25,798 nucleotides of DNA. Origin: a virus. Lineage: Duplodnaviria; Caudoviricetes. The notes beneath the pieces were generated by a model. That model was given only the letters and a program-made list of their open reading frames with translations, had not been told where the DNA came from and did not search any database. The stretch lies in the IMG/VR virus record IMGVR_UViG_3300008255_000436, positions 1 through 25,798 of that record. One strand, written 5' to 3'. Shown piece by piece: positions 698 through 25,604 of the stretch. Both the position numbers and the translations under genes were made by a program. Positions within the stretch are counted from its first letter, which is position 1. Each line of letters opens with the position of its first letter.

Positions 698-759
698 CAA
701 GCCCGCAGAACGCCTCTCAGCGCGTTTTCCCAGGCCGTTTAAACGACCTGCAAGAGATC

Positions 760-810
760 GCAAGAGATCATGGAGAAGGGCTTGCGAGCCCCCCGGATCT
801 GTCGTACGCT
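760..810 (+). promoter_or_regulatory. SigA-like promoter overlapped by GCAAG-N16-CTTGC operator
   Basis: GCAAG 760-764, CTTGC 781-785. -35 TTGCGA 782-787, 17 bp spacer, -10 TACGCT 805-810. RBS GAGGAG 849-854 precedes ATG 863. Confidence 0.7.
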
Positions 811-862
811 TCAGCCCCCAACCGCACCCGACCACCAACCACAACCACGAGGAGCACCAAGA

Positions 863-1873
863 ATGCGCATCATGCTGAGCGGCACCCAGATCTCCAACGG
901 CAACCCGGAAGACCTCATGTCCGCGCTGTACGTCACCGACCGCCTGGTGGACGTCATCCGCGCTGCGGGCGGCAAGATCTACGGCGACCCCCGCGACCCC
1001 AAGAACCTGAAGAAGGCGTTCCGCTACACGTTCATGCGCTACGACGAGGCCGCTCAGAAGTGGGTCGCCGACCTCAACCGCATGCCCGTCCTGAACGACG
1101 CCCTCCGCGCGACCTGCTACATCCGCCGCGAGAAGAGCCAGGTGCTGACCGACCTCCCCGCGCTGCGTCGTGACACGATCGAACTGAACCTGAACGGCGA
1201 CCTGCGCAAGTACCGCCAGGCCGAGGAGGACATGGTCCGCTTCCTGGTGGAGCACGGCGGCGAGGACGCGCTGGAGGGCTACTACCGCGCCGAGGTGCTG
1301 GTGCGCATGGGCACCCTCAAGCGCCTGGCTGGCGAGGCCAAGATCAACGAGGCCATCGCCTGGGTGGACGACTTCCTCGCCTCCCGCCCCGACGCGCAAC
1401 TGGTCATCTTCGCCACCCACAAGAGCGTTCAGCACGGACTGGTGGAGCACCTGGAGGAGAAGGGCATCAAGACCGTCCACATCAACACCGGCAAGGGTGC
1501 CACCGACGAGGGTGGCCCGGTGGATCGCTTCCAGAAGGGCGAGGTCCAGGTCGCGGTCTGCTCCCTGGCTGCCGCCCGTGAGGGCATCACCATGACGGCT
1601 GCGGACACGCTGCTGATGGTGGAGCAGGGCTGGACCCCGATGGAGGCTGACCAGGCCGAGGCCCGGATCCACCGCCCCGGTCAGAACGCCGACCACACCG
1701 AGGTCGTCTCGCTGCTGGCTGCTGACACCTTCGATGAGGACCTGTTCGCCATCATCGGGAAGAAGCGCACCGTCGAGGCCCTGGCATTGCGCGGCGAGAT
1801 CAGCGAGGACCAGGACGAGGAGAGCGTCACCCGCCAGGTCATCACCAAGATGATGGAGCGCCACGGGCGTTAG
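863..1873 (+). CDS. SNF2-family helicase, C-terminal half (motifs III-VI)
   Basis: Starts MRIMLSGT (motif III). Also LVIFATH (IV), AAREGITMT (V), QAEARIHRPGQ (VI). Start moved from 770 to 863 because of the RBS and promoter. Confidence 0.85.
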   Translation: MRIMLSGTQISNGNPEDLMSALYVTDRLVDVIRAAGGKIYGDPRDPKNLKKAFRYTFMRYDEAAQKWVADLNRMPVLNDALRATCYIRREKSQVLTDLPALRRDTIELNLNGDLRKYRQAEEDMVRFLVEHGGEDALEGYYRAEVLVRMGTLKRLAGEAKINEAIAWVDDFLASRPDAQLVIFATHKSVQHGLVEHLEEKGIKTVHINTGKGATDEGGPVDRFQKGEVQVAVCSLAAAREGITMTAADTLLMVEQGWTPMEADQAEARIHRPGQNADHTEVVSLLAADTFDEDLFAIIGKKRTVEALALRGEISEDQDEESVTRQVITKMMERHGR

Positions 1874-1951
1874 GTAATGACCCTTCGGGGAGCAGGGTTT
1901 AAACGCTCCCCACCCCACATCACCAACCACAACCTGAGGAGCACGAGCAAC

Positions 1952-2248
1952 ATGTACCTGACCACCGACCACCACATGACCATCGACGTCACTGAGATGC
2001 CCCTGGAAGATCTCTTCGGACGACTGTTCGCCGGTCGCAGCGTAGTGCGCATCACCTACCTGCGGGGCCTGGACGACGACCTGGACGACCCCATCGTCCG
2101 CGCCGAGCAGGAGCGCATGGGTGACTACTTCATCATCCGCGCCGAGGGCGACGGGATGATCGTGAGGCCCTGGTACGACGACGACGACTCCATGGGAGTC
2201 GAGGAAGAGATGCCCTACGACGAGATCGTGAGCGTGATCTACCTCTAG
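1952..2248 (+). CDS. hypothetical acidic protein
   Basis: GAGGAG RBS at 1936-1941, high GC3, followed by a terminator. Confidence 0.75.
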   Translation: MYLTTDHHMTIDVTEMPLEDLFGRLFAGRSVVRITYLRGLDDDLDDPIVRAEQERMGDYFIIRAEGDGMIVRPWYDDDDSMGVEEEMPYDEIVSVIYL

Positions 2249-2259
2249 AACAAGAGCAC

Positions 2260-2303
2260 CCAACAGCCCCCCAGCCACATCGGCGGGGGGTTTGTTGTTG
2301 TTC
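2260..2303 (+). terminator. intrinsic terminator
   Basis: CAACAGCCCCCC...GGGGGGTTTGTTG stem followed by TTGTTCT. Confidence 0.65.
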
Positions 2304-2333
2304 TAGTACGATCGTGTCTCGGACAACGAACGA

Positions 2334-3785
2334 ATGGAACACAATCAAATGCGCATCTACCAGCAGGGTGGGGAGAACCCAACCTTCCGAAAGATCCTCT
2401 TAGAGCACACTGACACAATCGCGGTGTCGTGGTGGGGCATCAGGGCACGTATCCCAAAGACCAAGCCCTATGACCTGCGCTCTCGCCTGGGTGATTCAGC
2501 ATTCGTGATCGTGGGTGCAGGCAACCCCCAGGACCGCGACCCCGCATCCCTGGACATCGCCACTGGTGCGCTGCACGGCCTGGTGGAGGCCAACGTCCAG
2601 GAGATGGACTTCGCCATCGAGGTGGACGCCTACGCCGAGTACGACCGCATTCTGGACTGGCGCGAGGAGTTCTGGGATCACCTGCCCTCCGGGAAGTTCT
2701 GCCCGGTGTGGAAGCCAGGCTACGGGCTGGACGAACTCAAGCGCCTGTGTGTGACCTACCACCGGGTCGCTGTGACCGCCGCAGGACTGCACGATCCACG
2801 CGCTGCGGCGTTCTTGCGCACGGTCCGGGATGTCCACTTGCACGGGCTGGGAATCGCCGACATGGAGGCTCTGAGCGCGTTTCCCCTGGAGAGCGTCAGC
2901 AACAGCGCCTGGACCAACCCGATGCGCCACGGGGAGATCATCTACTGGGACGGCCAGCAGATCCGCCGCCACTCCAAGGACGAGCACGAGGAGGGCATCC
3001 GCAGAGCGCGTCAGTTCGCTCACAAGGTCGGTTTGGAGCCCAGCGCAGTGGATGCCAAGGACGGCATCGCAGCGCTTGCTGTGAGGGCGTACAGCGCATT
3101 GGCCCAGGACAGTGAGAATGCGGTAGTAGGTATTGCACCACTCAAGTCTGAAGATGACCTGTCTCAGTTGGACCTATCAGAACTTGTGATGGGGGAGGAG
3201 ATGCCCCTCAACCTGATCGATCTCGACAAGCCTGTATCACGAAAGCCAAAGCCGCGCGCCAAGAGCATCTTGCCCATCCTCTCAGTCACCCAGGAAGAGG
3301 TGCCAGATGAGGAGCACGGGGGGACGAAGAACGTTGATCGCATCAGCCCCAGTGGTCGCCAGTTGCTGGCGTGTGACAACTGCGCGCTGAGTGACAAGTG
3401 CCCCGAGTTCGATCCAGGAAGCGAGTGCGCGTTCGACATCCCCATCCAACTGCGCAGTCGAGATGACGTATCTCGATTCCTCAGTGCGCTCCTGGAGATC
3501 CAGGGACAACGAGTCATGTTCGGTCGCTTCATTGAGCAACTCGAAGGTGGCTACCCAGACCCGAACATCAGCAGCGAGATGGACAGGTTCTTCAAGGTGA
3601 TGCAGATCGCCAAGGACATCGAGGACAACCGCGACTACCTGAAGATCAACGTCGAAACCCGCGCCAATGCAGGAGTGCTATCACGCCTGTTCGGGAGCAA
3701 GGTAGGGGAACAAGCACGTGAGTTAGACGAGCCCATTGACACCTCTGCACTGACCACCAAGGTAGATGACCAGTTCGATCGATAG
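2334..3785 (+). CDS. TGT/DpdA-like TIM-barrel protein (catalytic residues look degenerate) fused to a Cys4-containing C-terminal domain
   Basis: PVWK...LKRLC...RVAV, HLHGLG and PLESVSNSAW...G resemble phage queuine-tRNA-ribosyltransferase-like motifs (PVWH, HGLG, SVDSSSW). C-terminal CDNC-x5-CP-x7-CAF. Start may be 2349 (MRIYQQGGE). Confidence 0.55.
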   Translation: MEHNQMRIYQQGGENPTFRKILLEHTDTIAVSWWGIRARIPKTKPYDLRSRLGDSAFVIVGAGNPQDRDPASLDIATGALHGLVEANVQEMDFAIEVDAYAEYDRILDWREEFWDHLPSGKFCPVWKPGYGLDELKRLCVTYHRVAVTAAGLHDPRAAAFLRTVRDVHLHGLGIADMEALSAFPLESVSNSAWTNPMRHGEIIYWDGQQIRRHSKDEHEEGIRRARQFAHKVGLEPSAVDAKDGIAALAVRAYSALAQDSENAVVGIAPLKSEDDLSQLDLSELVMGEEMPLNLIDLDKPVSRKPKPRAKSILPILSVTQEEVPDEEHGGTKNVDRISPSGRQLLACDNCALSDKCPEFDPGSECAFDIPIQLRSRDDVSRFLSALLEIQGQRVMFGRFIEQLEGGYPDPNISSEMDRFFKVMQIAKDIEDNRDYLKINVETRANAGVLSRLFGSKVGEQARELDEPIDTSALTTKVDDQFDR

Positions 3786-4360
3786 CAGGTATTTGCAAAT
3801 CTCGGTGTATGTGCAAGTGGGGTGTGACGAAAACTCACGGCGTTTAAACGCAGCACGTGCCCAGATGGGTAGTGGAATCACAACCCTTACGCACCCACCA
3901 GGCGACCAAACCCGCGCGGGGTGGAGAGCACACCAACTCTCCCTAGTCAAGGGGGAAAGACACATCGTCCTGATCCTCGCCTACCCCTTGACATCCCCCT
4001 CGTTGACCAAACCCGCGCGCCAGGGAAATCCTCCCCCTACTACATAGAGAGGGAGAGAGTCAAGAGGGAGAGGGAAAGACTGTCGATGTGTTGCCTGCGG
4101 TGTCCCCTGCTTGCTGGTGGCTAACAGTTGGGTGACTTCGTGGGCCTGTTACTTGTTACCCCTGACGATCTGTCCCCCTGAGGTCTGGCCACTTCACCCG
4201 CTGCCAAACTACAAAACGCCCGCGAATCCCGTTTTGGGGGGCAAATCGTCTTTTTTTCGTGTGACAAAACTCGAAATTTGTAACATTTCAGGAAAGTCAA
4301 GACCCAAAACCATGAAATTTCGCTTGACTTTCATGAAAACCTGTGATCCGGGGCGGAAAC

Positions 4361-4388
4361 CGCGCGCATAATAGCCCTTATGTCAACC
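4361..4388 (+). other. dif: XerC/XerD dif-like recombination site
   Basis: CGCGCGCATAA-TAGCCC-TTATGTCAACC has 11-6-11 architecture. Matches 9/11 and 8/11 to the E. coli dif arms GGTGCGCATAA and TTATGTTAAAT. Confidence 0.75.
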
Positions 4389-4438
4389 TGGGGCGGGTGC
4401 TTGCTCGAATTCGCACTGAAAACCGTCCGAATTTGGGG

Positions 4439-4498
4439 TGAAATCCGGTCAAATCGTCCTTTTTCGGCTGAAATCAGGACAAATCGACTTTTTCGACC
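4439..4498 (+). repeat. two imperfect 30-bp tandem repeats with 10-bp-phased AAATC/TTTT tracts
   Basis: TGAAATCCGGTCAAATCGTCCTTTTTCGGC and TGAAATCAGGACAAATCGACTTTTTCGACC. CAAATCG also occurs at 4242, 4515 and 4604. Confidence 0.8.
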
Positions 4499-4755
4499 CC
4501 CCCATCATTAAAGTCAAATCGTCCGGGGGTGGGCCGGGCAAGAACGAGATTTGTCTCAGGGGCACTAGGGGAGCCGTAAACCGTCTTACGGTAAAGCGGC
4601 GGGCAAATCGGGCCGGGGACTTTCCCATAAGGCAACCGGAAACCGGGCGGGCAGGGCGACCGGGCTGACCGTCGCATGGATCGGGCGGTAAGCGGGCCTT
4701 CAGTACAGGCGGGACAAGACCGCGCGAATTAGGGGCAGTCGTTTAAACTGCTCCA

Positions 4756-5322
4756 ATGGAACAGAATTCGCGCCAGAGTCACCTACCGTTTGAGATTCCC
4801 GATCTCGACACAGAGCAGGCGATGGACTTCCTGGAGGGTCGCAACGCGATGTTCCACGCCGGGAGGGGCGGATTCGACTTACGACCGACGCCTGCGCACT
4901 TCGGGACGATGAAGGCAGCGGTACAGCGCTCACGTGCGTTTACCTCTGACAAGACGCTGCTCGCAGAGAACGTCGGCGAGGTGTATCCCCGTACCTTGAA
5001 TGACATGGAAGCCAACATGGTGGAGATGGGGGCGTCTCGCGAGGTTGGACAACCCTCGTGGCACTGGAAGAGCGAGACACACCCCAAGATCTTCGAGCAG
5101 AAGCGCGGGCGGCTGAACGAGATGATCCAGGGAGTCGCAGCGGGGAAGTTCGGGGTCCAGTACACAAACGCGGTCGAGGACAAGGGGAACACCTCTCTGC
5201 TGACCTCCCCCAACAACATGAAGGTGGCCGGACGAGTTCCGACCGAGTGGTTGGACAACGGCACGTACGGAGACGGGCGCGTCGTGCGCGGTTTGAAGTT
5301 CCGCAGCGGAGAATGGGAGTAA
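4756..5322 (+). CDS. ADP-ribosyltransferase-like (ART-PolyVal-like) protein, paralog 1
   Basis: MFHAG...AHFGTMKAAVQR...QYTNAVEDKGNTSL. TAAACT -10 sits 6 nt before the ATG (leaderless). Confidence 0.6.
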   Translation: MEQNSRQSHLPFEIPDLDTEQAMDFLEGRNAMFHAGRGGFDLRPTPAHFGTMKAAVQRSRAFTSDKTLLAENVGEVYPRTLNDMEANMVEMGASREVGQPSWHWKSETHPKIFEQKRGRLNEMIQGVAAGKFGVQYTNAVEDKGNTSLLTSPNNMKVAGRVPTEWLDNGTYGDGRVVRGLKFRSGEWE

Positions 5323-5469
5323 CGCGCGGAAAAAGGAAGATCTTCTCTTGGTAGACAGAGTAGACGCAGGAGAATGGGGATAGAGGACGCCGAAACGCAA
5401 AATCCTCGGGTCGTCGCCCGAAGGGCGACTTGGAAACCGGGAAATCGCGCGTTCGTTTAAACTCACTCC

Positions 5470-6171
5470 ATGGCCCTAAACGACCGCCAATTCTCATTCC
5501 CTGGAATGCCAAAGGCATCGCCGACACCATTCGTGCCACATGGCAGTGGTGTGCAAAGCCATGACCAGACCTGGTATCACGCCTCCGAGAGCCCTACCTT
5601 CCGCGCGCGTGAGGATCTGGGTGGGATGACCGGTGGGGGGATGCACTTCGGGTCCCAGCAGGCGGCTGCGGAGCGGACATCCGAGAAGCACCTCCAGGTC
5701 CATGTCGGTGGCGCGAACACCCAGGGCTGGCCCTCACCCCGCCACGCCTCTCCCCCGCGCAAGTACATGCAGCACTGGCAGGTCAAGCCTGACGTCGATT
5801 ACGGGCACGGGACCTCCGACATGCTGGAGAACTGGCCCGACGAGGCCCCTGAGAACCCTCAGCCGTATGAGAACGACTACGAGGACCCCGGTTCGACCTC
5901 GCTGTGGGCGGATCCTAATCAGATGCAGCACGTGGGAACCGTCCCCAACCCCGCGCGGACTCAGGTAGATGGTCCTGGTGCCACGACCTGGCTGGACAGC
6001 GACTCCAACGAGACGACCCAGTTGAAGATCCCCAACATCAACGAGGAGCAGTTCGACAACGGACGTCCGAACCCCTACGCGCACGAGCAGTGGAAGTCGC
6101 CCAGCATCCACGCCGATGCGAAGTTCAACACCTCGGTCCTGCCGGGGAACCGTCTGTGGGACCGCTCCTAA
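5470..6171 (+). CDS. ADP-ribosyltransferase-like (ART-PolyVal-like) protein, paralog 2
   Basis: WYHAS...GMHFGSQQAAAER...YENDYEDPGSTSL. N-terminus LNDRQFSFPGM. TAAACT -10 sits 6 nt before the ATG. Confidence 0.6.
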   Translation: MALNDRQFSFPGMPKASPTPFVPHGSGVQSHDQTWYHASESPTFRAREDLGGMTGGGMHFGSQQAAAERTSEKHLQVHVGGANTQGWPSPRHASPPRKYMQHWQVKPDVDYGHGTSDMLENWPDEAPENPQPYENDYEDPGSTSLWADPNQMQHVGTVPNPARTQVDGPGATTWLDSDSNETTQLKIPNINEEQFDNGRPNPYAHEQWKSPSIHADAKFNTSVLPGNRLWDRS

Positions 6172-6202
6172 CAGCGCGGTGTTAACTTAACACCGGGTCG
6201 CA

Positions 6203-6253
6203 GCAAGAATTTCTCAAGAAACACTTGCATCCCCGCCTCAGACCGTCTAGGGT
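6203..6253 (+). promoter_or_regulatory. leaderless promoter with GCAAG-N16-CTTGC operator
   Basis: Operator 6203-6228. TTGCAT 6225-6230, 17 bp, TAGGGT 6248-6253, ATG 6261. Confidence 0.7.
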
Positions 6254-6260
6254 CTGGGGC

Positions 6261-6785
6261 ATGGACCACATCACATCATTCAACACCGAGGAAGAACTTC
6301 AGGAGTACTTCGCCAAGATGCGCGAAGCGGAGATCCAGGCGCTCTCCCAACTCCACGAGCAGCAGCGCCGCATCACCATGGCAGACGAGATGCCCGAGGA
6401 CGGCACCCGCTTCTGGATGAGCCCCCGGCTGGGCGACTACGGGGTCGTGATCTTCGGCCGCGCGCAGTCCTTCAGCGAGTCCAACGCCAACGAGATCCAG
6501 TCCGGTGCCGAGCCCGAGGAGGCCGCGTACTCCGACGAGGCCCTGCGGGACGCCTTCGCACGAGGGTACGTCTACGGCAACGCCTACTCCCCGCTGGAGA
6601 CACGCGGTGAGTTGGGGTCCACACACCTCAGCAGGGTGTGGCCCATCACCGAGGAGCAGTTCAACCAGGCCCAGGAGTGCAACTTCGACTTCCCCTCAAC
6701 GGTGGCGCTCGCACGACAGGACGGGGAGGACTGGCTCACCGAAGGCGTCCTGAACCTGGCGACACACCACGCCACCCTCCGGTAA
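6261..6785 (+). CDS. hypothetical phage protein (GYVYGNAYS...GELG..H motif)
   Basis: High GC3. Leaderless start at 6261 from the promoter position. Confidence 0.8.
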   Translation: MDHITSFNTEEELQEYFAKMREAEIQALSQLHEQQRRITMADEMPEDGTRFWMSPRLGDYGVVIFGRAQSFSESNANEIQSGAEPEEAAYSDEALRDAFARGYVYGNAYSPLETRGELGSTHLSRVWPITEEQFNQAQECNFDFPSTVALARQDGEDWLTEGVLNLATHHATLR

Positions 6786-6853
6786 CACCCCTGTGGTGGG
6801 GTACACGTTTAAACTGCACCTACCGTGTACCCCACTAAAGGAGTTGCATTACC

Positions 6854-7222
6854 TTGCGTTCCCTACCACCGTCTATTCCCCTTGGTGTCTTTCTACTAAT
6901 CATTGGTGCTGCTGTTGCGTTCGCACCGGACATTCTGATTGCGACACCCTCTCACGAGTTGTTGTTCAGCGTGGTACCCCAGGAGGTTATTGGGGGTGCA
7001 CAAAGCCTCATGGGAGCGTTAATGATCATCGGGGCCGCACGACGCTCTCCGAACACCATTAGGTTGGCTGCGGTGATCGAACTTGCTGCGGCGCTGACAT
7101 GGGCGACCACATCGATGGTTCCTCTGTTCCAGGGCAACCAGGCGAACATCCTGAGCATGGGTGTGTGGTTGTACGTCGCAGCGGATTGCTTTGCCACCGC
7201 GAAGGATCCGCGCACCATTTAA
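6854..7222 (+). CDS. membrane protein, about 4 hydrophobic segments
   Basis: Hydrophobic helices, GGAG RBS before the TTG start, lower GC3 than neighbours. Stop lies within ATTTAAAC. Confidence 0.65.
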   Translation: MRSLPPSIPLGVFLLIIGAAVAFAPDILIATPSHELLFSVVPQEVIGGAQSLMGALMIIGAARRSPNTIRLAAVIELAAALTWATTSMVPLFQGNQANILSMGVWLYVAADCFATAKDPRTI

Positions 7223-7227
7223 ACGCT

Positions 7228-7278
7228 GCAAGAAACGTTTGACAGGGTCTTGCACTCCCCTTCCTGGCGTGGCATCCT
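7228..7278 (+). promoter_or_regulatory. promoter with GCAAG-N16-CTTGC operator
   Basis: Operator 7228-7253 with internal TTGACA 7239-7244. TTGCAC 7250-7255, 17 bp, CATCCT 7273-7278. Confidence 0.6.
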
Positions 7279-7312
7279 CGTGGTGACCCGACCCCAACAA
7301 TAGGAGGAAGAG

Positions 7313-7954: not shown

Positions 7955-8116
7955 TTTACTTACCCTCGCATCCTTGGGTACACTTCTAATGTGATCCACT
8001 ACATGAGATCGAAGGATGTATTGATGTGTACCCCACTAACCTTTCCAACAGCAAGATCGTCCTCGCGTGGTTTCTCCTGACCTTTGGTTGGCAGATCCTC
8101 GTTCGAGGTGTTTAAA

Positions 8117-8165
8117 CGAAACCCCCTTCTCCACAGAAACTTGTAGGAAAGGGGGTTTCGCTTTC
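8117..8165 (+). terminator. intrinsic terminator-like hairpin next to GTTTAAAC
   Basis: CGAAACCCCCT 8117-8127 pairs with AGGGGGTTTCG 8150-8160, then CTTT. Confidence 0.6.
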
Positions 8166-8180
8166 CCAAAAGGCTGTCGA

Positions 8181-8312: not shown

Positions 8313-8314
8313 TC

Positions 8315-8354: not shown

Positions 8355-8361
8355 CCCGTAC

Positions 8362-8905: not shown

Positions 8906-9267
8906 TGGCGCACCTCCGTGATCTCTCCGATGAAGTACGTGCCCTGTTCGCGAACAGCGCCATCATGTCGATCTGTCCGCACTGCGATGCCATCGCGGAC
9001 TGTCAGGTCGCCGGTCAGGAGGAGTCGATCCCCGGACCGGGGGATCTGGCGATCTGCTCCGGGTGCTTGAGCCTGGGGGTCTACGGGCGGTACGTCCCGC
9101 GAGACATCGAGTACAAGGGCAAGCCCGTCATCCAGGTCATGATTCACAATCCCAACCCGGAGGAGATGGATGCCTTCCTGGCCGATGAGAGGGTGAAGGT
9201 GGCGATCAACGCGATGAAGGTGGAGAGGGACATCCACAAGGTCGCCGAGAAGGTCAAGGCGGTTTAA
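8905..9267 (+). CDS. hypothetical Zn-ribbon protein
   Basis: CPHC...CSGC. The TAA stop lies inside GTTTAAAC. Confidence 0.75.
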   Translation: MAHLRDLSDEVRALFANSAIMSICPHCDAIADCQVAGQEESIPGPGDLAICSGCLSLGVYGRYVPRDIEYKGKPVIQVMIHNPNPEEMDAFLADERVKVAINAMKVERDIHKVAEKVKAV

Positions 9268-9270
9268 ACG

Positions 9271-10127: not shown

Positions 10128-10140
10128 CTCCATCCCCGTT

Positions 10141-10175
10141 TAAACCGCCCCTACACCTAACGTGGGGGCGGTTTA
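10141..10175. terminator. hairpin overlapping GTTTAAAC
   Basis: TAAACCGCCCC pairs with GGGGCGGTTTA. Confidence 0.6.
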
Positions 10176-11500: not shown

Positions 11501-11971
11501 ATGGATCTGTATCTCGACGTCGATGGGGTAGTGAACGCCCTTAGCAAGAACCACCCCAACACCTGGGAGCAGTGGCGGGTACAGATCGCCCACCCGGTTG
11601 ATGGAGACTTCTCAATCCGGTGGTCACCTGACATGGTCGAGCGTTTAAACGGTTTGGGCCTAAATGTGCTTTGGGTCACGACTTGGCAGCACGACGCGGA
11701 AGTCTGGATCCAGAACATGACTGGTATCGAGGCTTCCGGAGTGTTGCCACTCGACTATGAGCACTACGACCGGATGGCTAAGTTCACTGCGGTGTACCAG
11801 CACCGGTACCTCAGGGAAGGTGAACCGTTCATCTGGATTGATGACGTGGACATCCCACGGAAGGCCAAGGAAGTGTTCCCCGAAGCGCTTCTCATCCGTC
11901 CCACCGCTAACTACGGGATCACTCCGGGACACATTCGAGAAATGAGGGAGTTCATCCAACAACACACGTAG
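11501..11971 (+). CDS. HAD-superfamily phosphatase (Swiss-Army-Knife RNA-repair type)
   Basis: LYLDVDGV (DxD), WVTTW, FIWIDD. Confidence 0.8.
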   Translation: MDLYLDVDGVVNALSKNHPNTWEQWRVQIAHPVDGDFSIRWSPDMVERLNGLGLNVLWVTTWQHDAEVWIQNMTGIEASGVLPLDYEHYDRMAKFTAVYQHRYLREGEPFIWIDDVDIPRKAKEVFPEALLIRPTANYGITPGHIREMREFIQQHT

Positions 11972-13042: not shown

Positions 13043-13133
13043 CGCCGGTTTAAACGTCGTTAAACCAGATTCTTGAGAAATCTGGGGGGATGTCCTTGCC
13101 GCCCCCTGCCCGATCGCCTAAGGTAACCCGCAG

Positions 13134-13808: not shown

Positions 13809-13823
13809 CCGGTTTAAACGGCA

Positions 13824-16283: not shown

Positions 16284-16553
16284 ATGACTACTTGCGCCAA
16301 CTGTTTAAACCCTGCGAAGTGGATCTCCACCCGCAAGTCACATGGTCCTGTCATCACGTGCACAACCCACCGTCCTGCTAATTGGGAAGCGTTGATGATG
16401 GTCCCCTTCAAGGAACCAGAAGAGGAGAAGCCCGTTGCGGAGGATCCAGAAGCAGAAGACAAGCCGAAGAAGACAACCACAAAGCGAACTGCCACCCCTA
16501 AGGTTTCTACCCCCCGGAGACGAAGTGCGCGCAAGACTGAAGAATCGACCTGA
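16284..16553 (+). CDS. small Zn-finger protein with acidic and basic tail
   Basis: CANC...CTTH. -10 TAGGAT 16271-16276, leaderless. Confidence 0.7.
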   Translation: MTTCANCLNPAKWISTRKSHGPVITCTTHRPANWEALMMVPFKEPEEEKPVAEDPEAEDKPKKTTTKRTATPKVSTPRRRSARKTEEST

Positions 16554-17865: not shown

Positions 17866-17868
17866 ACA

Positions 17869-17905: not shown

Positions 17906-17969
17906 ACTGCTATTGGACGGGTCGTTTAAACGACTTTGCACATGGTAGCACAGTTGTCTGATCATGCTC

Positions 17970-18009: not shown

Positions 18010-18064
18010 AGGGCCATGCCAGATGTCCCCCCACAACTACGGATGTACAAAGAGTACAGCACAC

Positions 18065-18265: not shown

Positions 18266-18271
18266 GGGTCC

Positions 18272-18982: not shown

Positions 18983-18983
18983 C

Positions 18984-19520
18984 GTGAGTAACCGTCTACG
19001 AACGGCTTTGTTAGTTGCGGCGTTTCTGATCTCCGCAGCCGTGTCATTCGCGTTTGCAGAGAGGGCAGAAGCGCAATCCATTGAGTACGGATGTGAAACC
19101 TACGGTTGTCTGTATGGGCACAATCCAACGCACTACAGCCGTGGTCACAATCCTGACGAGTGGCCGAAGTACGCAACGTCCTACCAGTACCTCCCTGATG
19201 GCCCTGATGGGCGTTACTTCGTAGAGGTCCATTGGCCTGGGTCGTATGACCCCGCTAACCGCGCGAAGTGGGACCAGGTAGCGCAGTGCGAAAGCACGCA
19301 GCGTTGGCACATCAACACTGGCAACGGGTACTACGGAGGGATCCAGTTCTCGTTATCCACGTGGCACGCGTTCGGTGGTCAGATGTACGCCTACTACCCA
19401 CACCATGCCACCCCTGAGCAACAGATCGACATCGGTATCAATGTTGCCTACGAGGGCTACGATCGATACCGTCCCCAAGGACCAGGCGCGTGGCCCCACT
19501 GTGGAAGACCGTTACGATGA
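18984..19520 (+). CDS. rpf: secreted resuscitation-promoting-factor (Rpf)-type lytic transglycosylase
   Basis: WDQVAQCES..W.INTGNGYYGGIQFS.STW..FGG...ATPEQQI...QGPGAWPHC. Sec signal peptide ending AEA-Q. Confidence 0.9.
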   Translation: MSNRLRTALLVAAFLISAAVSFAFAERAEAQSIEYGCETYGCLYGHNPTHYSRGHNPDEWPKYATSYQYLPDGPDGRYFVEVHWPGSYDPANRAKWDQVAQCESTQRWHINTGNGYYGGIQFSLSTWHAFGGQMYAYYPHHATPEQQIDIGINVAYEGYDRYRPQGPGAWPHCGRPLR

Positions 19521-19566
19521 CCAGCCACGTTTAAACACTGCTACACTTCCAGCGCTGCTCCTAAGC

Positions 19567-19594
19567 GAGGCCCCTGCCTAATGGCGGGGGCTTC
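19567..19594 (+). terminator. hairpin between rpf and terminase
   Basis: GAGGCCCCTGCC-TAAT-GGCGGGGGCTTC. Confidence 0.55.
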
Positions 19595-19619
19595 GTCAAT
19601 TCTCAATAGAATCACAAGT

Positions 19620-21185
19620 ATGGAAAACGAATTCGAGACAAATGAGGACATCTTTGGTGAAGAAATTCCCCTCGATGGGTCCACACAACAACTAGTCGAT
19701 GAAATCTGCGCAAGGATGGTGTTATTCGCTGAAGAGTTAGCGGGACACGAACTCTTCGACTACCAGAAGCACCTGATTCTACGGATCTTCGAAAGCGTAA
19801 TCACTGGGGATGCTGAGACAGTCACAGGACTCCAGGCACGCCAGAGTGGTAAGACCGAGACGGTGGGATGTGCGGTCGCCACGATGATGATCCTCCTGCC
19901 CAAGTTGGCTCCCATGTTCCCTGAACTGCTTGGTAAGTTCGAAAAGGGCGTATGGGTTGGGTGTTTTGCACCGACTGGTGACCTCTCCGACATCATCTTC
20001 TCGCGCATCGTGGATCGACTCACCAGTGAGAACGCCACAGAGATCATGCTGGACCCCGAGATCAACGATGAGGTGGGCGGTAGGGGGAAGATCATCCGTC
20101 TGAAGAACTCGGGGTCGTTCTGTCGCAAGCAGACCGCTCACCCCAGCGCGAAGATCGAAGGTTCGTCCTACCACCTTGTGGTGATCGATGAGTCCCAGGA
20201 CTGCGACGACACCGTTGTCCGTAAGTCCATTCACCCCATGTTGGCGTTCTACGCGGGGACCATCGTCAAGATCGGTACTCCTTCTACCCGTAAGGGTGAC
20301 TTCTACAAGCAGATCCAGTTGAACAAGCGCCGTCAGGTGCAGCGCGGATCAAAGCAGAATCACTTCGAAGCCAACTGGCGTGCGTGTGCACGGAACAACA
20401 AGAACTACGCCCTGTTCGTGAAGAAGGAGATCGAGCGACTGGGGGAGGAGTCCGACGAGTTCCAGATGGCCTACAACCTCAAGTGGCTGTTGGACCGAGG
20501 AATGTTCGTCAGTGCCTCTGTGCTGGATCCTGACGACCCGGAGTTCCTGGGGGACAAGTCCATGCAGATCGTGGACCAGTGGTACGCCACACCCGTTGTG
20601 GTGGGCATCGACCCGGCCCGTGAACTGGACTCCACCGTCGTGACCGTGCTCTGGGTGGACTGGGAACGTGAGGATGCCTTCGGCTACCGCCACCACCGGA
20701 TCCTGAACTGGTTGGAGATCACGGGTGAGAAGTGGGAGGAGCAGTACGCCCAGATCTACCACTTCCTCCAGAACTACAACGTGCTCAAGATCGGTGTGGA
20801 CGCCCAGGGGATGGGTGACGCGGTTGCGGAACGGTTGCAGGTCGTCATGGGTCCCTACATCGAGGTCGAGAAGTTCGACTCCACCAGGCCCGCCCAGAGC
20901 GCGCGGTGGAAGAACCTCCAGTCTCTCATGCAGCGCCGCATGCTGATGTGGCCTGCCCATGCCTGGACACGTCGTCTCCGGACCTACAGGCGTTTCAGCC
21001 AACAGATGGCCGATGCCGAGAAGCACTACTTTGGTGACCACATGATGGTGGAAGCACCCGAAGAGGCTGGGGCGCATGATGACTATGTGGACAGTCTGGC
21101 AATTGCTGCAATGACTTCGACGTATGATGAGATGCCAGAAGTGGAGACAGTTGTAAATCCCTTTGCAACACATCGTCGTCGTTAG
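19620..21185 (+). CDS. terL: terminase large subunit
   Basis: ARQSGKTE (Walker A), LVVIDESQ (Walker B), IGTP, VGIDPA and HDDYVDS (nuclease). Start 19620 chosen from -10 TAGAAT 19607-19612; the ORF track gives 19581, which lies inside a hairpin. Confidence 0.92.
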   Translation: MENEFETNEDIFGEEIPLDGSTQQLVDEICARMVLFAEELAGHELFDYQKHLILRIFESVITGDAETVTGLQARQSGKTETVGCAVATMMILLPKLAPMFPELLGKFEKGVWVGCFAPTGDLSDIIFSRIVDRLTSENATEIMLDPEINDEVGGRGKIIRLKNSGSFCRKQTAHPSAKIEGSSYHLVVIDESQDCDDTVVRKSIHPMLAFYAGTIVKIGTPSTRKGDFYKQIQLNKRRQVQRGSKQNHFEANWRACARNNKNYALFVKKEIERLGEESDEFQMAYNLKWLLDRGMFVSASVLDPDDPEFLGDKSMQIVDQWYATPVVVGIDPARELDSTVVTVLWVDWEREDAFGYRHHRILNWLEITGEKWEEQYAQIYHFLQNYNVLKIGVDAQGMGDAVAERLQVVMGPYIEVEKFDSTRPAQSARWKNLQSLMQRRMLMWPAHAWTRRLRTYRRFSQQMADAEKHYFGDHMMVEAPEEAGAHDDYVDSLAIAAMTSTYDEMPEVETVVNPFATHRRR

Positions 21186-21196
21186 GAACAGGTTCG

Positions 21197-21958
21197 ATGC
21201 GCAGCAGACTTAAGTCATTCTATGCCCAGCACCCGGAGATGGCCCCTGCTGACCCATTGGGGAACATCGTTCAGGCTGGGAACACCTATGTGCAGAAGTC
21301 GGGACTCGACATCCCGCGCATTTCTCCCGGTGACTTCCGAAGTGTGTCTGCGAGTCCCCACGGACCCGCGATCGCGCGGGCGTATGGAAACCTTCCTGAC
21401 AATGATCCATCATCTCACCCGTCATTCGCAGCGATGCGTGAAGAGAACCACAGGCAGTTAGAAACGCTCACTTCACCGGTAAGTAAGGGTGGTGCTGGTT
21501 TAAACGTCAACGTCTCGAAGGAGGACCCGTACGACAGCCCAGCGGCGTTACGCCGGGACGTCATGGAGAACAACAACCTGACGGTGATGTCCACGGCCAC
21601 CACGGGGGGCCACCCGTACTTCTCCAACGACGACAACGATGCCTTCCGTGCGGTCCACGATGCTTACGGACACCTCGCCACAGGGCGTGGGTTCGACCGT
21701 CACGGGGAGGAGGCTGCCTGGTTGTCCCATAGCCGCATGTACAGCCCAGCAGCGCGTGGGGCGATGACCTCAGAGACGCGGGGACAGAACAGCGCCCTCA
21801 TCTACGGTACCCAGGACAACCCGCCTGGTGAGTTCGGACCACAGAAGGTCGGGCTGCTGCCCAGCGCGTTCTCCAACCCCTACCGGACCTCTCTGACGGG
21901 ACGAACAGCAGCGGCCCACATGCAGGGACAACAACTCCGGAACTTCCGTTCGGTCTAA
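21197..21958 (+). CDS. conserved phage protein with FRAVHDxxGH...GEE motif (possible zincin-like metalloenzyme)
   Basis: NDAFRAVHDAYGH...GEEAAW..H...ETRGQNS. Confidence 0.7.
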   Translation: MRSRLKSFYAQHPEMAPADPLGNIVQAGNTYVQKSGLDIPRISPGDFRSVSASPHGPAIARAYGNLPDNDPSSHPSFAAMREENHRQLETLTSPVSKGGAGLNVNVSKEDPYDSPAALRRDVMENNNLTVMSTATTGGHPYFSNDDNDAFRAVHDAYGHLATGRGFDRHGEEAAWLSHSRMYSPAARGAMTSETRGQNSALIYGTQDNPPGEFGPQKVGLLPSAFSNPYRTSLTGRTAAAHMQGQQLRNFRSV

Positions 21959-21981
21959 CCCTCCGGTGTACTATCTGGAGC

Positions 21982-22242
21982 ATGAGCACTCCCAACAAGA
22001 AGAACCAGCCGAAGCGACTTCGCTTCTCAGCAGAATCTCTCGCCAACCTTCTCGATCTCCCACAAGGTGTGGACATCAAGGGGGCTACCTATAGCGACCG
22101 AGACGGTGGATTAGTTCACTTCAGTGTTACTGATCCCGATCGGATCCTCCCCCAGGGAGACTCTGCCCTCCTCTACGAGTCAGTGGTAGACCTTCCGGGT
22201 TTCCGTCTCAAGGAGTTGGAAGAACTTCCCGAATTAACGTAA
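21982..22242 (+). CDS. hypothetical protein
   Basis: -10 TACTAT 21969-21974, leaderless ATG. Confidence 0.65.
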   Translation: MSTPNKKNQPKRLRFSAESLANLLDLPQGVDIKGATYSDRDGGLVHFSVTDPDRILPQGDSALLYESVVDLPGFRLKELEELPELT

Positions 22243-22301
22243 TCCCGGCAACCTTACGACTACACTCCAAGTAGCAAGGTTCCATCCTCTCAGGAGTCCT
22301 A

Positions 22302-22709
22302 ATGGATACTTATCAGAACATCGCACCTGCACCGCCCTACCCAGAGAAGGGGTACCCTCAGTACGAGCGTGCCATGGCTTTCAATGGTGTGCGGCGTGGT
22401 CCCATGCGCTTCCAGGAAGGTGTCGCAACTGACACCGACGTCCCGAATGACTTCATGGTCGGGATCCAGCAGGCACACATGCCTGCACCTGGGCGTATGA
22501 ACCGCAACTCCAAGGTGGACACCAAGTACCCCGAAGAGACGTTGCGTCAGCGCGCACACGTCGGGTCGGCTGCTTGGGTCGAAGGCCCTCAGTACCTCGG
22601 TGAGTTCGCGCACGGATCATTCGGTGACGCTGGACACATCCAGTACGAGCGTATCTTCCGTCCTGAGGGGAAGCAGTACTTCCCGAACCCAGCGCAGGTT
22701 TGGGACTAA
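22302..22709 (+). CDS. conserved head-module protein (RRGPMRFQEGVATDTDVP), probably structural
   Basis: AGGAG RBS. Lies between terminase and portal. Motif recalled from large actinophages, not searched. Confidence 0.7.
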   Translation: MDTYQNIAPAPPYPEKGYPQYERAMAFNGVRRGPMRFQEGVATDTDVPNDFMVGIQQAHMPAPGRMNRNSKVDTKYPEETLRQRAHVGSAAWVEGPQYLGEFAHGSFGDAGHIQYERIFRPEGKQYFPNPAQVWD

Positions 22710-22710
22710 C

Positions 22711-22804
22711 CCTCCCGCGTAGATAGCGTTTAAACGACTACGCGGGAGGTGATCCGGTATCTGCACACCGGACCGTCTGCAATGGCGGTCCGGTGCTTGC
22801 CGGG
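22711..22804 (+). terminator. two consecutive hairpins, the first enclosing GTTTAAAC
   Basis: CCTCCCGCGTAG...CTACGCGGGAGG and CACCGGACCGTC...GGCGGTCCGGTG. Confidence 0.55.
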
Positions 22805-22821
22805 TCTTAAGGGAGGATTGA

Positions 22822-23109
22822 ATGGCGAAGAACCCTCGACCATCCAAGGTTGGCAAGTTCACCCCACGGCCTGATGGGTTCTTTCCTCCAGAGAAGCGTA
22901 AGGTCAATCAGCAGGCGACCTTAGCCAATCGCGAGCAGTTCGGTGATGCTCCCGTCACCGACGAGCAGTGGGCCGACAGCGTCGTCCACACCCCTGTGCA
23001 GGGTCAGTTGTTCACTGGTGGGCACGAGCACCCATGGCCGCGCGGGTACTCCCCTGAGCGCCAGGCTGAGGTTCGCGGGGCGCTTGACACACGATCGTGG
23101 ACGTACTAA
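22822..23109 (+). CDS. hypothetical protein with QF/QGQLF motifs, possibly truncated
   Basis: GGAGG RBS. A promoter for the next gene is embedded in its 3' end. Confidence 0.6.
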   Translation: MAKNPRPSKVGKFTPRPDGFFPPEKRKVNQQATLANREQFGDAPVTDEQWADSVVHTPVQGQLFTGGHEHPWPRGYSPERQAEVRGALDTRSWTY

Positions 23110-23119
23110 CCTTAGTGAC

Positions 23120-23269
23120 ATGCACACGCTCACTGACAGGGAGATCGAACTCCTCACCTGCGAGGAGTGTCAGAAGTTCATGACACACGCAGAAGGATGC
23201 TCCGTCGCTGCTGTCGGACTGTGTGTCACCCCGCACCAGTCCACCCCCAAGATCGCCGATCCCCTCTAA
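23120..23269 (+). CDS. 49-aa Cys/His-rich protein
   Basis: TTGACA 23084-23089, 17 bp, TAACCT 23107-23112, leaderless ATG 23120. CEEC..H..GC...C..H. Confidence 0.6.
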   Translation: MHTLTDREIELLTCEECQKFMTHAEGCSVAAVGLCVTPHQSTPKIADPL

Positions 23270-23283
23270 CGCTCTCCCCCCGA

Positions 23284-23327
23284 CAAGGAGGAACCCCCAG
23301 CCCTCACGGGTTGGGGGTTCCTTGTTT
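23284..23327. terminator. bidirectional terminator between convergent genes
   Basis: AGGAACCCCCAGCCC...GGGTTGGGGGTTCCT followed by TGTTT. Confidence 0.75.
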
Positions 23328-23336
23328 AAACGGTTC

Positions 23337-23552
23337 CTAGAACTCCTTCACGAACACACGCACGCGGGAGATGTCGATGGACTTCGGGAGGTTCTGTGCA
23401 GCGGTGAGACGAACCTGGTCAGCATTCTTGGCGAACTGCCGTCCCTGCTCGTAGACCGTAGGGGCTCCGATGTAGTTGCCCTTCTCATCCTTCTCGGGCT
23501 CGATGGCGACAACGTAGACGAACAGACGGTACTCGCCGATTGCAGTGCTCAT
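23337..23552 (-). CDS. hypothetical protein, the only credible minus-strand gene (frame open to 23753)
   Basis: MSTAIGEYRLFVY... preceded by AAGGAAG. GC3 bias on the minus strand. Ends at the convergent terminator. Confidence 0.65.
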   Translation of the reverse strand: MSTAIGEYRLFVYVVAIEPEKDEKGNYIGAPTVYEQGRQFAKNADQVRLTAAQNLPKSIDISRVRVFVKEF

Positions 23553-23783
23553 GGTGGGGGGATCTTCCTTCTTTGGTGTCTGTAGTTGTGGGGTGTTGAT
23601 TGTGGTCTTGGTTGTAACCGATTCAAACGTGTTCGTGTAGGTGTGTGGGGCGTACGGAACGTACGGTCGCCGATTGTACGGTAGGGGAGGTGATGGGTTC
23701 GGGAACAGGTCAGGCCAGTAGTTGTGGCGGTGGGGAGTATTGTCTACGTACACATTTAGCCTCTTACAGGTAAGGTTGTATCA

Positions 23784-25514
23784 ATGGCTGGCATCGATTT
23801 TCACGCTCCTAATTTCCGTGCTGGTGGGTCTGACCTCACCATCAACATCAGCCCGTTGGGCTTGGTGGAACTGAGCGATGAAGAGTTTGAGGTACATGGT
23901 CCCCGCCTACAACGTTACCAGCATGCCTGGGCGTTCTACCTGGGTCACCACTGGTCGTACCGTCGTGAGGTCGGGGAACCTCAGATCACAGTTAATTACT
24001 GTCGCGCAATCAGTGACTACATCACCAACTTTACGTTTGGCAACGGGTTTCGTGTAAAGACGCCTTTGGCGACCGAGGCCATCGTACCCGGACTTCTCCA
24101 GCGTGTCTGGGAAGTTGACAACCACAAGGCTCAGGTTCTGTGGGAGATGGGCAACCAGGGATCCGTGGCTGGCGACGTGTTCGTCAAGATCGCTTACGAG
24201 GAGCCGTTCAAGGATGCTCTGGGCCGGTGGCACCCAGGACGGGTGCGGATCCTCCCACTGCACGCGGGTCACTGCTTCCCCGAGTGGCACCCACACGACC
24301 GCTCCCGACTGACGCGCTTCAAGTTGAAGTACCGCTTCTGGGGAACCACCCCCGAGGGAACGCGCCAGGTGTTCACTTACACCGAGATCATCACTGACGA
24401 TGAGATCCGTGAGTACGTCAACGATGAGTTGCTTCCTGACAGCCCTCGACCGAACCCATTGGGTGTCATCCCGGTTGTCCACATCGCTGACCGCCTGACA
24501 TCTGGTTCGCCGTGGGGTCTAGGTGACCTCACCGACCTGACACCGCTGAACCGCGAGTTCAACGAGAAGATGACCGACATCTCGGACATCATCAACTACC
24601 ACGCGGAGCCCGTAACCATCATCACGGGTGCCAAGGCATCTCAGTTGGAGAAGGGCTCCAAGAAGATGTGGGCAGGTCTTCCTGCTGACGCGAACGTCTT
24701 CAACCTCGAACTGGGTGGAAACCTAGCCGCGCCATTGGCGTACCTTGAGATCCTAAAGCGTCAGATGCACGAGGTCAGTGGTGTGCCTGAAACCGCGCTG
24801 GGGCAGAGCCAGCCGATCAGCAACACCTCCGGTGTGGCTCTTCAGATCCAGTTCGGGCCGCTGATGAACGTCTTCAACCGGAAGAAGATCCAGTACGGCA
24901 AGGGAATTGAGCGGATCAATGAGATCGCCATCCTCACTTTGGCGATCAAGGAGCCGGAAGTTCTCCAGTTCAACCCCGGTACCGAGGCCAACCTGAAGGC
25001 CGGTCAGTACCCCATGCTGGATCCTATGGATCCCTTGACCTACCGGAACGAAGTCGAGTTCCCATCGCCGCTGCCGCTGGATGTCCTGGTCAAGTTGAAC
25101 GAGGTCCAGGGTCGTATGGGTCTGGGTCTTGAGTCACGTCGTGGCGCGCTTCGTGAACTGGGCGAGGAGTTCCCCGACGAGAAGATCGAAGAGATCATGT
25201 CGGAGCGGATTGAGGACGCGAAGGAAGACGGCGCTCTGCAACTACTCCAGGCGCACATCCAGGCTGCGATCATGACCCAAACCGGGTTCATGCCAGTGGA
25301 GGGTGGAGGCTTCGAAGACCCCATGGCGGGTCAGACAGACGAGGCCGGTAACCCCATGTCGGAGAACGCTGGTCCTGCTGGTCGTCCCCCAACCCTTGAC
25401 GCCGGTATGAACCCACTGGAGGCCATCGGCAACCTGGCCGCAGAGTTGAACATCGAGGCGTACGGAACCAAGTTGGCTCAGCGCCGTAACCCCACAACGG
25501 ATAAGACCCCGTAG
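23784..25514 (+). CDS. portal protein (SPP1 gp6-like)
   Basis: 576 aa downstream of terL. NPLGVIPVVH, GLGDL..L..LN, SNTSGVAL. -10 TAAGGT 23771-23776, leaderless. Confidence 0.88.
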   Translation: MAGIDFHAPNFRAGGSDLTINISPLGLVELSDEEFEVHGPRLQRYQHAWAFYLGHHWSYRREVGEPQITVNYCRAISDYITNFTFGNGFRVKTPLATEAIVPGLLQRVWEVDNHKAQVLWEMGNQGSVAGDVFVKIAYEEPFKDALGRWHPGRVRILPLHAGHCFPEWHPHDRSRLTRFKLKYRFWGTTPEGTRQVFTYTEIITDDEIREYVNDELLPDSPRPNPLGVIPVVHIADRLTSGSPWGLGDLTDLTPLNREFNEKMTDISDIINYHAEPVTIITGAKASQLEKGSKKMWAGLPADANVFNLELGGNLAAPLAYLEILKRQMHEVSGVPETALGQSQPISNTSGVALQIQFGPLMNVFNRKKIQYGKGIERINEIAILTLAIKEPEVLQFNPGTEANLKAGQYPMLDPMDPLTYRNEVEFPSPLPLDVLVKLNEVQGRMGLGLESRRGALRELGEEFPDEKIEEIMSERIEDAKEDGALQLLQAHIQAAIMTQTGFMPVEGGGFEDPMAGQTDEAGNPMSENAGPAGRPPTLDAGMNPLEAIGNLAAELNIEAYGTKLAQRRNPTTDKTP

Positions 25515-25604
25515 CGTTTAAACGATGCACGCCGCTATGTCGTGATAACTTCGTGTTGAGGCACTAACCCGTACAAACAAACCTCACACACGGAGAAACG
25601 ATAA

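Follow-up and report, generated by a model that had tools for sequence, protein, structure and literature searches.

Genome-wide systems of short binding sites are known from phages. Cluster A mycobacteriophages such as L5 and Bxb1 carry many repressor sites, termed stoperators, throughout the genome, a few in promoters and the majority outside them, and these are proposed to silence it for lysogeny and immunity (PMC6550527). Cluster O mycobacteriophages contain more than 30 copies per genome of an invariant symmetric site that is mostly intergenic, with about one third of the copies in genes, and is not tied to promoters; these repeats are predicted to bind a dimer, with a function that is not established and a reader that is not described in the text of that report (PMC4351075). 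Cyanobacterial HIP1 (GCGATCGC) is an over-abundant octamer palindrome of coding and non-coding DNA that is under selection and non-randomly spaced (PMC5861425), and B3 mycobacteriophages show an unexplained genome-wide excess of the palindromes GATC/GGATCC (PMC4841201). The window analyzed here, which is the whole 25.8-kb contig of a groundwater phage (IMG/VR record IMGVR_UViG_3300008255_000436; G+C content (GC) 59.8%), resembles each of these systems in part. It holds a grid of 19 copies of the octamer palindrome GTTTAAAC, and across other phages the same octamer is linked to a gene for a SprT-like metalloprotease-fold protein (phrog_6361), which is the candidate reader of the grid.

The 19 exact copies span positions 737–25523, and the sole one-mismatch variant in the window is ATTTAAAC at 7217 (Table 1). 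Both had been listed by an earlier reading made without database searches (the sequence-only reading), which had estimated the GC slightly too high, at 60–65%. The expected number of copies is 0.03–0.05, dinucleotide shuffles of the window contain a mean of 0.03 and a maximum of 1, and the octamer with its flanked forms supplies the top 8-mers of the window. The motif is strict, with 19 of the 20 occurrences of TTTAAA falling within GTTTAAAC and one single-mismatch variant where 2.6 are expected. In 24 of 38 half-sites the base next to the octamer is G, which gives the consensus (C)GTTTAAAC(G), and the flanked 10-mer has six copies in this contig. Conservation around the sites stops at 8–10 bp, and the palindrome has no spacer. 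By the HIP1-type measure of at least 15-fold excess, in and between genes, the window octamer qualifies.

In a gene model curated by hand (86% coding), 15 of the 19 sites are wholly non-coding, one lies on a stop codon (9262) and three are coding (11643, 16303 and 21498); the sequence-only reading had placed sixteen at gene boundaries. The intergenic excess has a binomial p of 2e-10 and speaks against the octamer as a primase priming site. The three coding sites all read as xGT TTA AAC, and the codon TTA accounts for 20 of the 546 leucine codons of the window. Gaps between the 19 sites range from 596 to 2491 nt, with a mean of 1377 and a coefficient of variation (CV) of 0.38. The spacing is more regular than expected from uniform placement (p 1e-5) or from gene-position nulls that allow one site per intergenic spacer (p 2.6e-4) or any gene boundary (p 5e-5), and it stays even when the variant at 7217 is added (CV 0.44, p 1.2e-4). 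The near-even spacing with no gap above about 2.5 kb, as first described, therefore holds at p ≤ 3e-4 even against gene-boundary nulls. The minimum gap is statistically stronger than the maximum gap, and the sites therefore avoid one another. The claim that sites lie in or beside hairpins did not survive: pairing across the sites is not above that of flanks swapped between sites (p 0.08–0.24, four settings), a hairpin or cruciform function was dropped, and the apparent association arises because the sites lie between genes.

Contigs of four aquifer/groundwater runs, compared over positions 6000–25798, differ at 24 positions, none of which is inside the 14 of 19 sites in that range; coverage is patchy, so that not each site is seen in each run, and one run may be the source of the window. 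An assembly artefact and engineered PmeI sites, an origin that the sequence-only reading had named as one way in which it could fail, are ruled out by the Alone3-like gene order, the in-frame coding sites and the agreement of independent contigs. The octamer grid in this phage is real and under selection. A role as a promoter element was also ruled out, since the distance from a site to the next plus-strand start is not fixed, ranging from 1 to 906 nt, and 2 of the 19 sites overlap a -10 element. The earlier statement that the grid fits a chromosome-wide site better than an ordinary operator was half right: most sites are off promoters, yet in other phages some lie in promoters, including that of the candidate reader gene itself.

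Viral contigs were scanned with three 14-base patterns containing GTTTAAAC and one control pattern around GAAATTTC, and further copies were then counted. Flanks were taken for 80 loci per scan, the second pattern scan covered 44 of the 64 parts of the viral collection, and loci below 4 kb were excluded from the enrichment counts. By scan pattern, 4 of 79, 14 of 78 (one being this phage) and 6 of 74 loci were enriched for GTTTAAAC at p < 1e-5. Enrichment at this level was thus found in 23 of 230 other viral loci chosen by one copy, compared with 0 of 75 for the control palindrome, and GTTTAAAC was not in excess in the control loci (11 observed versus 19). As many as 47 sites in 57 kb were counted in motif-rich whole contigs, whose GC ranges from 34 to 69%. 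Many enriched loci belong to one HTVC023P-type podovirus clade; records G001, G005, G008, G009, L179 and L189, and the window itself, have almost no proteins in common with that clade or with one another. Because cultured relatives of the motif-rich groups hold 0–2 sites, the grid is patchy within lineages. Spacing is even in G009, G015, G001 and L179. Some sites lie, by eye, inside -35/-10 spacers or just ahead of TTGACA.

Record G008 (L355–L360; rated 100% complete) consists of two related Bacteroidota-type podovirus genomes joined, whose conserved proteins are 65–85% alike and whose halves contain 29 sites (dense in the first 10 kb) and one site, respectively. Sites at orthologous codons often bring amino-acid changes, and five of six sites are kept between two phages that are 87% identical. 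Judged by these sequence comparisons, the sites are selected at the DNA level. They also bear on a HIP1-like origin, in which methylation or biased repair would turn near-matches into the octamer and docking would be absent. Such a process would suit a strict palindrome that occurs in coding and non-coding DNA and has few near-matches, both in the window and in G001 (none versus 5.3 expected). It is nevertheless highly improbable: no methyltransferase family was found in the window or in 247 Pfam-scanned proteins of motif-rich phages (a subset of their genes), the intergenic bias is strong, the sites repel one another, and they are conserved and written in with amino-acid change. HIP1 itself has been argued to be kept by selection (PMC5861425).

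Other repeat patterns were seen in the scanned records. An octamer cluster at L189 1–430 has six copies in 430 nt at steps of about 48 nt, unlike the even grid, and L439 11100–11180 has three octamers in 70 nt; both clusters are near contig or genome ends. G005 (L150–L152) combines six GTTTAAAC with a strong excess of CTCGAG-containing 8-mers (about 50 versus 6). Other palindromes are enriched in W12 (L411–L414; CGTTAACG, 14 versus 0.5) and in W07 (L399–L402; CCAGCTGG, 17 versus 2.6, and TCGTACGA, 10 versus 1.0), the latter with a distant SprT-like gene.

Proteins were clustered from 31 motif-rich sequences, mostly fragments, and 11 motif-free relatives, the weak or short records G019, L223, L028, L098 and L181 being excluded from the motif-rich set. 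The top presence/absence discriminator was a SprT-like HExxH protein with a C-terminal cysteine domain, found in 13 of 31 motif-rich and 1 of 11 motif-free sequences; phrog_6361 is matched by all 12 aligned members of the family, and no other small protein links unrelated motif-rich groups. Among scan loci of at least 8 kb, shorter ones being excluded from this table, 10 were enriched and had the gene, 22 were enriched without it, 3 had the gene without enrichment and 142 had neither (odds ratio 21.5, p 2e-6, kinship ignored), and the gene was found in 0 of 58 control loci. All seven strongly enriched, unjoined records that are at least 74% complete (G002, G005, G006, G007, G179, G180 and G185) carry it. 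An octamer site lies just upstream of the SprT-like gene in G002, G005, G006, G015, L456, Pan1, Crewmate and Bogota. The cultured carriers have an intact HExxH motif, and among the aligned copies only that of G002 (L147 2108–2713) lacks it, with AQLCH in its place; because G002 still has 26 sites, a grid can be kept without catalysis. In G008, the motif-rich half is without the gene and starts just short of the gene position in an 87–92% identical relative. In GenBank, 162 phage records match the SprT-like protein.

Seven GenBank phages (Pan1, Bogota, Crewmate, Percival, 4A, ChiliPepper and CN1) were chosen by a SprT-like protein match alone. Pan1 contains 16 copies of GTTTAAAC, one of them at the promoter of the SprT-like gene, and the other six phages contain 0–2. 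A second octamer, GTTTACAC, was first recognized in the DNA beside the SprT-like gene of Crewmate, Bogota and 4A, and was already an enriched one-mismatch variant in G002, G003, G007 and G008. It occurs 39 times in Bogota, 21 in Crewmate, 14 in Percival, 13 in 4A, once in CN1 and not in ChiliPepper, compared with 0–2 times in 10 comparison genomes. With the motif widened to GTTTA[A/C]AC, the totals are 40 in Bogota, 21 in Crewmate, 16 in Percival, 16 in Pan1 and 14 in 4A, with 0–3 in 11 comparison sequences, and a grid is present in five of the seven gene-chosen phages (Fisher p 0.003, post hoc). Whole DNA was analyzed for Bogota, Crewmate, Percival and Pan1; in each of them the top-ranked 8-mers come from the motif, whose copies lie at even intervals (CV 0.43–0.57, p ≤ 0.004). 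The mean gap in Bogota (1356) is close to that in the window. The asymmetric GTTTACAC lies on both strands in three cultured phages (14/7, 17/22 and 8/6). In ChiliPepper, CN1 and W07 the protease domain is retained, the C-terminus is divergent and a grid is lacking, and a C-terminal profile matches only the four grid carriers tested (4A being outside the test). Thus, the grid follows the C-terminal domain.

This last result weighs on an alternative in which some other protein, a repressor or silencer of host or phage, binds the octamer, and the linked SprT-like protease acts as an anti-repressor by cleaving that protein. Zinc-protease anti-repressors exist, for example in ImmA/ImmR and IrrE/DdrO, and an arrangement of this kind would account for the co-occurrence of gene and grid and for the promoter site without direct binding. 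It is improbable, as the grid tracks the C-terminal and not the protease domain, no second protein common to the motif-rich groups was found, and no tested host chromosome has the site at density.

The SprT-like protein of G007 was modeled with a predicted local distance difference test score (pLDDT) of 86.7 as a zincin-type helix-strand domain (residues 4–131), which a loose linker joins to a small hairpin-helix domain at the C-terminus, starting at residue 153. Its homodimer score is 0.62, compared with 0.00 for the best control; among solved structures, 20 of 30 pairs and 1 of 23 single chains scored at least this high. At least 85% of contacts are common to the dimer runs, at a pLDDT of at least 74. 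The protein is thus predicted to form a homodimer, which supports a reader role because a palindromic site calls for a dimer. The earlier proposal of a near-evenly spaced, orientation-independent site for a dimeric protein acting on the whole phage chromosome is supported, the site being strict and absent from host-type DNA (see below). In AZ/EH phages, the SprT-like protease (Lizalica gp46) combines HExxH with a small C-terminal predicted DNA-binding domain, and a role in lysogeny has been suggested; cluster AZ shows lysogeny without a known immunity repressor (bioRxiv 10.1101/2025.05.26.655371). Liebe, whose SprT-like gene has a frameshift with a 33-residue N-terminal truncation, forms clear plaques, and the near-identical Maureen forms turbid ones (bioRxiv 10.1101/2025.05.26.655371). 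Residues 3–42 of the SprT-like model are within the predicted dimer interface, so that the truncation in Liebe touches this interface.

The same dimer could also act as a DNA-activated protease guard on the grid, marking self DNA, with the promoter sites being autoregulatory only; its proposed targets are host defence nucleases or translocases, nucleoid silencers and DNA-protein crosslinks. The intact HExxH in nearly all copies suits such a guard, as do the even spacing, in which no gap is below 596 nt and which fits coverage, the position of most sites away from promoters and the lack of the site at density in host-type chromosomes. The AZ preprint predicts a SPRTN-like function (bioRxiv 10.1101/2025.05.26.655371), and the related CN1 gene is annotated 'antirestriction protein' (annotation alone). 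No substrate for the protease is known, G002 retains its sites with a catalytically dead copy, and the clear plaques of Liebe indicate lysogeny control. Because of these two latter observations repression is favored, and the guard, the main rival, is considered less likely.

Its gene content marks the window as part of a phage of the BRock/Alone3 type. The portal shows 55% identity to those of Streptomyces phages Alone3, BRock and kin (112–116 kb), and the genes include a terminase, an SNF2 helicase, a tRNA-ribosyltransferase-like gene and an Rpf-like transglycosylase. In view of the size of these relatives, most of the genome of this phage probably lies outside the contig. Searches with the portal, terminase, ribosyltransferase-like and Rpf-like genes turned up no close relatives of this phage. 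From the phage relatives and the family of the winged helix-turn-helix (wHTH) protein encoded at 14023, we infer an actinobacterial host. GTTTAAAC is absent from 16 loci of portal/terminase relatives and from the whole of Alone3 and G175–G178. The flanked 10-mer has at most three copies in each of 151 Actinomycetota genomes, which represent host-type DNA; a host highly iterated palindrome was rejected, as none of these genomes has such a density. Since the relatives and the Actinomycetota genomes are without it, the grid is particular to this phage lineage and sets phage DNA apart from host-type DNA. The sequence-only reading had counted a lack of enrichment in relatives against the element. 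That lack is literally what was found in the portal/terminase relatives, yet it does not refute the element, because the motif recurs, enriched, in unrelated phages.

The wHTH protein (14023–14625) has a helical N-terminal domain and a C-terminal winged helix, without a Pfam match. It is a phage member of an unnamed protein family of actinobacterial chromosomes (phmmer, 416 clusters; Atlas clusters likewise actinobacterial) with relatives in Egibacteraceae, Euzebyaceae and one further Actinomycetota genome, and a fold search gave weak generic winged-helix matches alone, none at E 0.001 or better. The sequence-only reading had put it forward as a possible reader together with the zinc helix-turn-helix (Zn-HTH) protein at 18471. 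A reader encoded in the window, either of these or the ParB-like-motif protein at 11981, or another compaction, packaging or ejection protein, would leave the match elsewhere as convergence. The confident winged-helix model of the wHTH protein (pLDDT 91) and the lack of a SprT-like gene in the contig favor this possibility, which is quite improbable on other grounds. None of the three proteins has homologues in the other motif-rich phages, Pfam shows no ParB family in the window, and it is unlikely that phages would converge on the identical octamer, C/G flanks included. The wHTH protein was rejected as reader, as a word search gave no near-length homologue and the four genomes with its relatives all have 0 copies of the 8-mer; the Zn-HTH protein is likewise not supported, having no homologue in other motif-rich phages.

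The preferred reading, to which we assign a probability of roughly 0.45, is that the 19 sites are docking sites of a phage-encoded SprT-like dimer (phrog_6361) acting as a genome-wide repressor. The link to this reader is strong across the other phages and for the present phage is drawn by analogy only, because the gene is not in the window; this phage probably encodes the gene elsewhere in its genome, in which case it would lie in the part outside the contig. The dimer would dock on each octamer via its two small C-terminal zinc domains, and a site at the promoter of its own gene would provide autoregulation. At a few promoter sites (those over the -10 elements of genes 4756 and 5470, and the one 19 nt inside gene 16284) bound dimers would block initiation, and at gene-junction and coding sites they would impede transcription running through or allow coverage of the genome by the protein. 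The sites would lie mostly after stop codons because their cost is least there, and even spacing would arise since an added site helps only far from existing ones. The outcome would be silencing for lysogeny, dormancy or superinfection immunity. Among the functions offered by the sequence-only reading, stoperator-like repression is the most supported, and nothing specific was found for compaction, ejection or packaging.

Several observations weigh against repression by a SprT-like dimer. The SprT-like gene was not found in the 25.8-kb contig by full or C-terminal profile, and no integrase was seen there. Promoter-like sequence is near few window sites (1 of 19 by regular expression, plus the two over leaderless -10 elements) and few sites of the cultured phages (4/21, 2/39 and 3/14). 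Even spacing suits a coat or guard equally, and it is not observed in the motif-rich G002, G003, G006, G007 and G014 (p 0.11–0.81). The grid–gene association ignores kinship, with many loci coming from the one podovirus clade; G184 (95 kb, 3 sites) and G181 (34 kb, 2 sites) have the gene without a GTTTAAAC grid (only GTTTAAAC being counted), G001, G009 and G014 (37–50% complete) have grids with no match to the gene, and G019 (rated complete) has no gene match and five sites, one of them the selecting copy, versus 0.64 expected. The strict GTTTAAAC prediction held strongly in one of the seven cultured phages, GTTTACAC having been added after looking. The dimer score was 0.13 in one of the three runs, and a Zn ligand was included in the modeling, unlike in the calibration. 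The contrast between Liebe and Maureen is a single pair with three further changes (bioRxiv 10.1101/2025.05.26.655371).

A wider reading is offered tentatively. A portable two-part system may be spread across phages of several bacterial phyla, combining a small gene for a sequence-specific, DNA-anchored metalloprotease with a self-written GTTTA[A/C]AC grid; the dimer would coat only phage DNA, silence it and cut proteins landing there, and would also be the missing AZ/EH immunity repressor. If so, a recipient genome would write the grid into itself even at amino-acid cost. The present results take an unexplained motif of an uncultured phage to a system that is testable in the cultured Bogota, Crewmate, Percival and Pan1, and offer both a DNA target for a widespread phage protein so far known only by annotation and, for cluster AZ, a candidate for the immunity repressor missing from published work. 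Should binding prove true, a protease-fold protein would read an 8-bp code genome-wide and move among unrelated phages that each rebuild the grid, which would constitute a new mode of phage self-DNA marking and control and an orthogonal repressor-operator pair for actinobacterial genetics.

Table 1. Octamer sites and leaderless-type starts in the window (positions in nt)
Feature	Position	Context
GTTTAAAC site	737..744	219-nt spacer separating two SNF2 helicase open reading frames
GTTTAAAC site	1897..1904	Intergenic; helicase stop 23 nt before
GTTTAAAC site	3842..3849	Intergenic; stop of tRNA-ribosyltransferase-like gene 56 nt before
GTTTAAAC site	4741..4748	Over TAAACT -10 element 6 nt ahead of ATG 4756; putative leaderless-type start
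GTTTAAAC site	5455..5462	Over TAAACT -10 element 6 nt ahead of ATG 5470; putative leaderless-type start
GTTTAAAC site	6807..6814	Intergenic; stop 21 nt before
ATTTAAAC, single-mismatch variant	7217..7224	Overlaps stop of gene 6854-7222
GTTTAAAC site	8110..8117	Intergenic
GTTTAAAC site	9262..9269	Its TAA is the stop of gene 8905-9267; next ATG 1 nt on
GTTTAAAC site	10138..10145	Intergenic; stop 10 nt before
GTTTAAAC site, coding	11643..11650	HAD_SAK_2 gene, CGT TTA AAC (R-L-N), rare codon TTA
GTTTAAAC site	13048..13055	Intergenic; stop 5 nt before
GTTTAAAC site	13812..13819	Intergenic; stop 3 nt before
GTTTAAAC site, coding	16303..16310	C-L-N, 19 nt inside gene 16284 (leaderless-type start)
GTTTAAAC site	17924..17931	Intergenic, within 14-bp palindrome GTCGTTTAAACGAC
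GTTTAAAC site	19529..19536	Between genes for Rpf-like transglycosylase and terminase
GTTTAAAC site, coding	21498..21505	phrog_3170 gene, G-L-N
GTTTAAAC site	22728..22735	Intergenic; stop 18 nt before
GTTTAAAC site	23324..23331	Between convergent genes; 5 nt past stop of minus-strand gene 23337-23753
GTTTAAAC site	25516..25523	1 nt past portal stop codon
Leaderless-type starts	4756, 5470, 6261, 8362, 9657, 10243, 11981, 16284, 21982, 23120, 23784

Further features of the window were noted. The SNF2 helicase is split into open reading frames 5–643 and 863–1873, the second beginning at the helicase motif due after the first and having its own -35/-10 and ribosome site inside the spacer, alongside site 737. 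The queuine tRNA-ribosyltransferase-like gene at 2334–3785 (phrog_887), of which no close relative was found in viral contigs, possibly encodes a deazaguanine DNA-modification enzyme. The following 970 nt or so (3786–4755) are without a clear plus-strand gene and contain repeated AAATCG-type words, possibly marking an origin or genome-end region. The sequence TANNNT lies 6–7 nt ahead of the ATG in 11 of 42 gene starts, including that of the portal, a leaderless-transcript layout. Lysine codons comprise 2 AAA and 286 AAG, and TATA occurs once and ATAT not at all in 25.8 kb, an avoidance that exceeds what 60% GC suggests. Short motifs of a Q-L/F-S/P-F type (QSHLPF, QFSFPGM, QLSFPGM and QGQLF) are common to several unrelated-looking proteins (4756–5322, 5470–6171, 11981–13042 and 22822–23109) and are perhaps a common targeting or clamp-binding signal.

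No description of the octamer or of its SprT-like link was found in the open-access literature (bioRxiv supplements being outside the scope of the search), in line with the initial impression that this is not a described phage element. Genome-wide phage binding-site systems are themselves known; the octamer grid and its link to the SprT-like gene are new with respect to the literature searched. The preprint on AZ/EH phages predicts SPRTN-like crosslink repair, and in its main text names no binding site and makes no link between grid and gene; TTTACAC, TGTAAAC and 'palindrom' have no matches in that main text (supplements outside), which mentions unshown repeats near the gene (bioRxiv 10.1101/2025.05.26.655371). 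Stoperators are asymmetric, oriented with transcription and subcluster-specific in consensus (PMC6550527), whereas here an 8-bp palindrome is the same in unrelated phages, and their repressor is reported as monomeric (PMC9283540), whereas the candidate reader here is a predicted dimer with a metalloprotease fold. The Cluster O repeats have another sequence, are 17 bp long, with two 7-bp arms and a 3-bp spacer, and belong to one cluster (PMC4351075), in contrast to the 8-bp site of unrelated phages with a candidate reader described here. HIP1 is chromosomal, periodic at 10–90 kb and methyltransferase-linked, with a binding protein that is not known (PMC5861425), whereas the present octamer is phage-borne, spaced at about 1.4 kb and follows a phage gene. 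Finally, the excess in B3 mycobacteriophages is about four-fold for a 4- or 6-mer (PMC4841201), compared with the several-hundred-fold excess of an evenly spaced 8-mer in the window.

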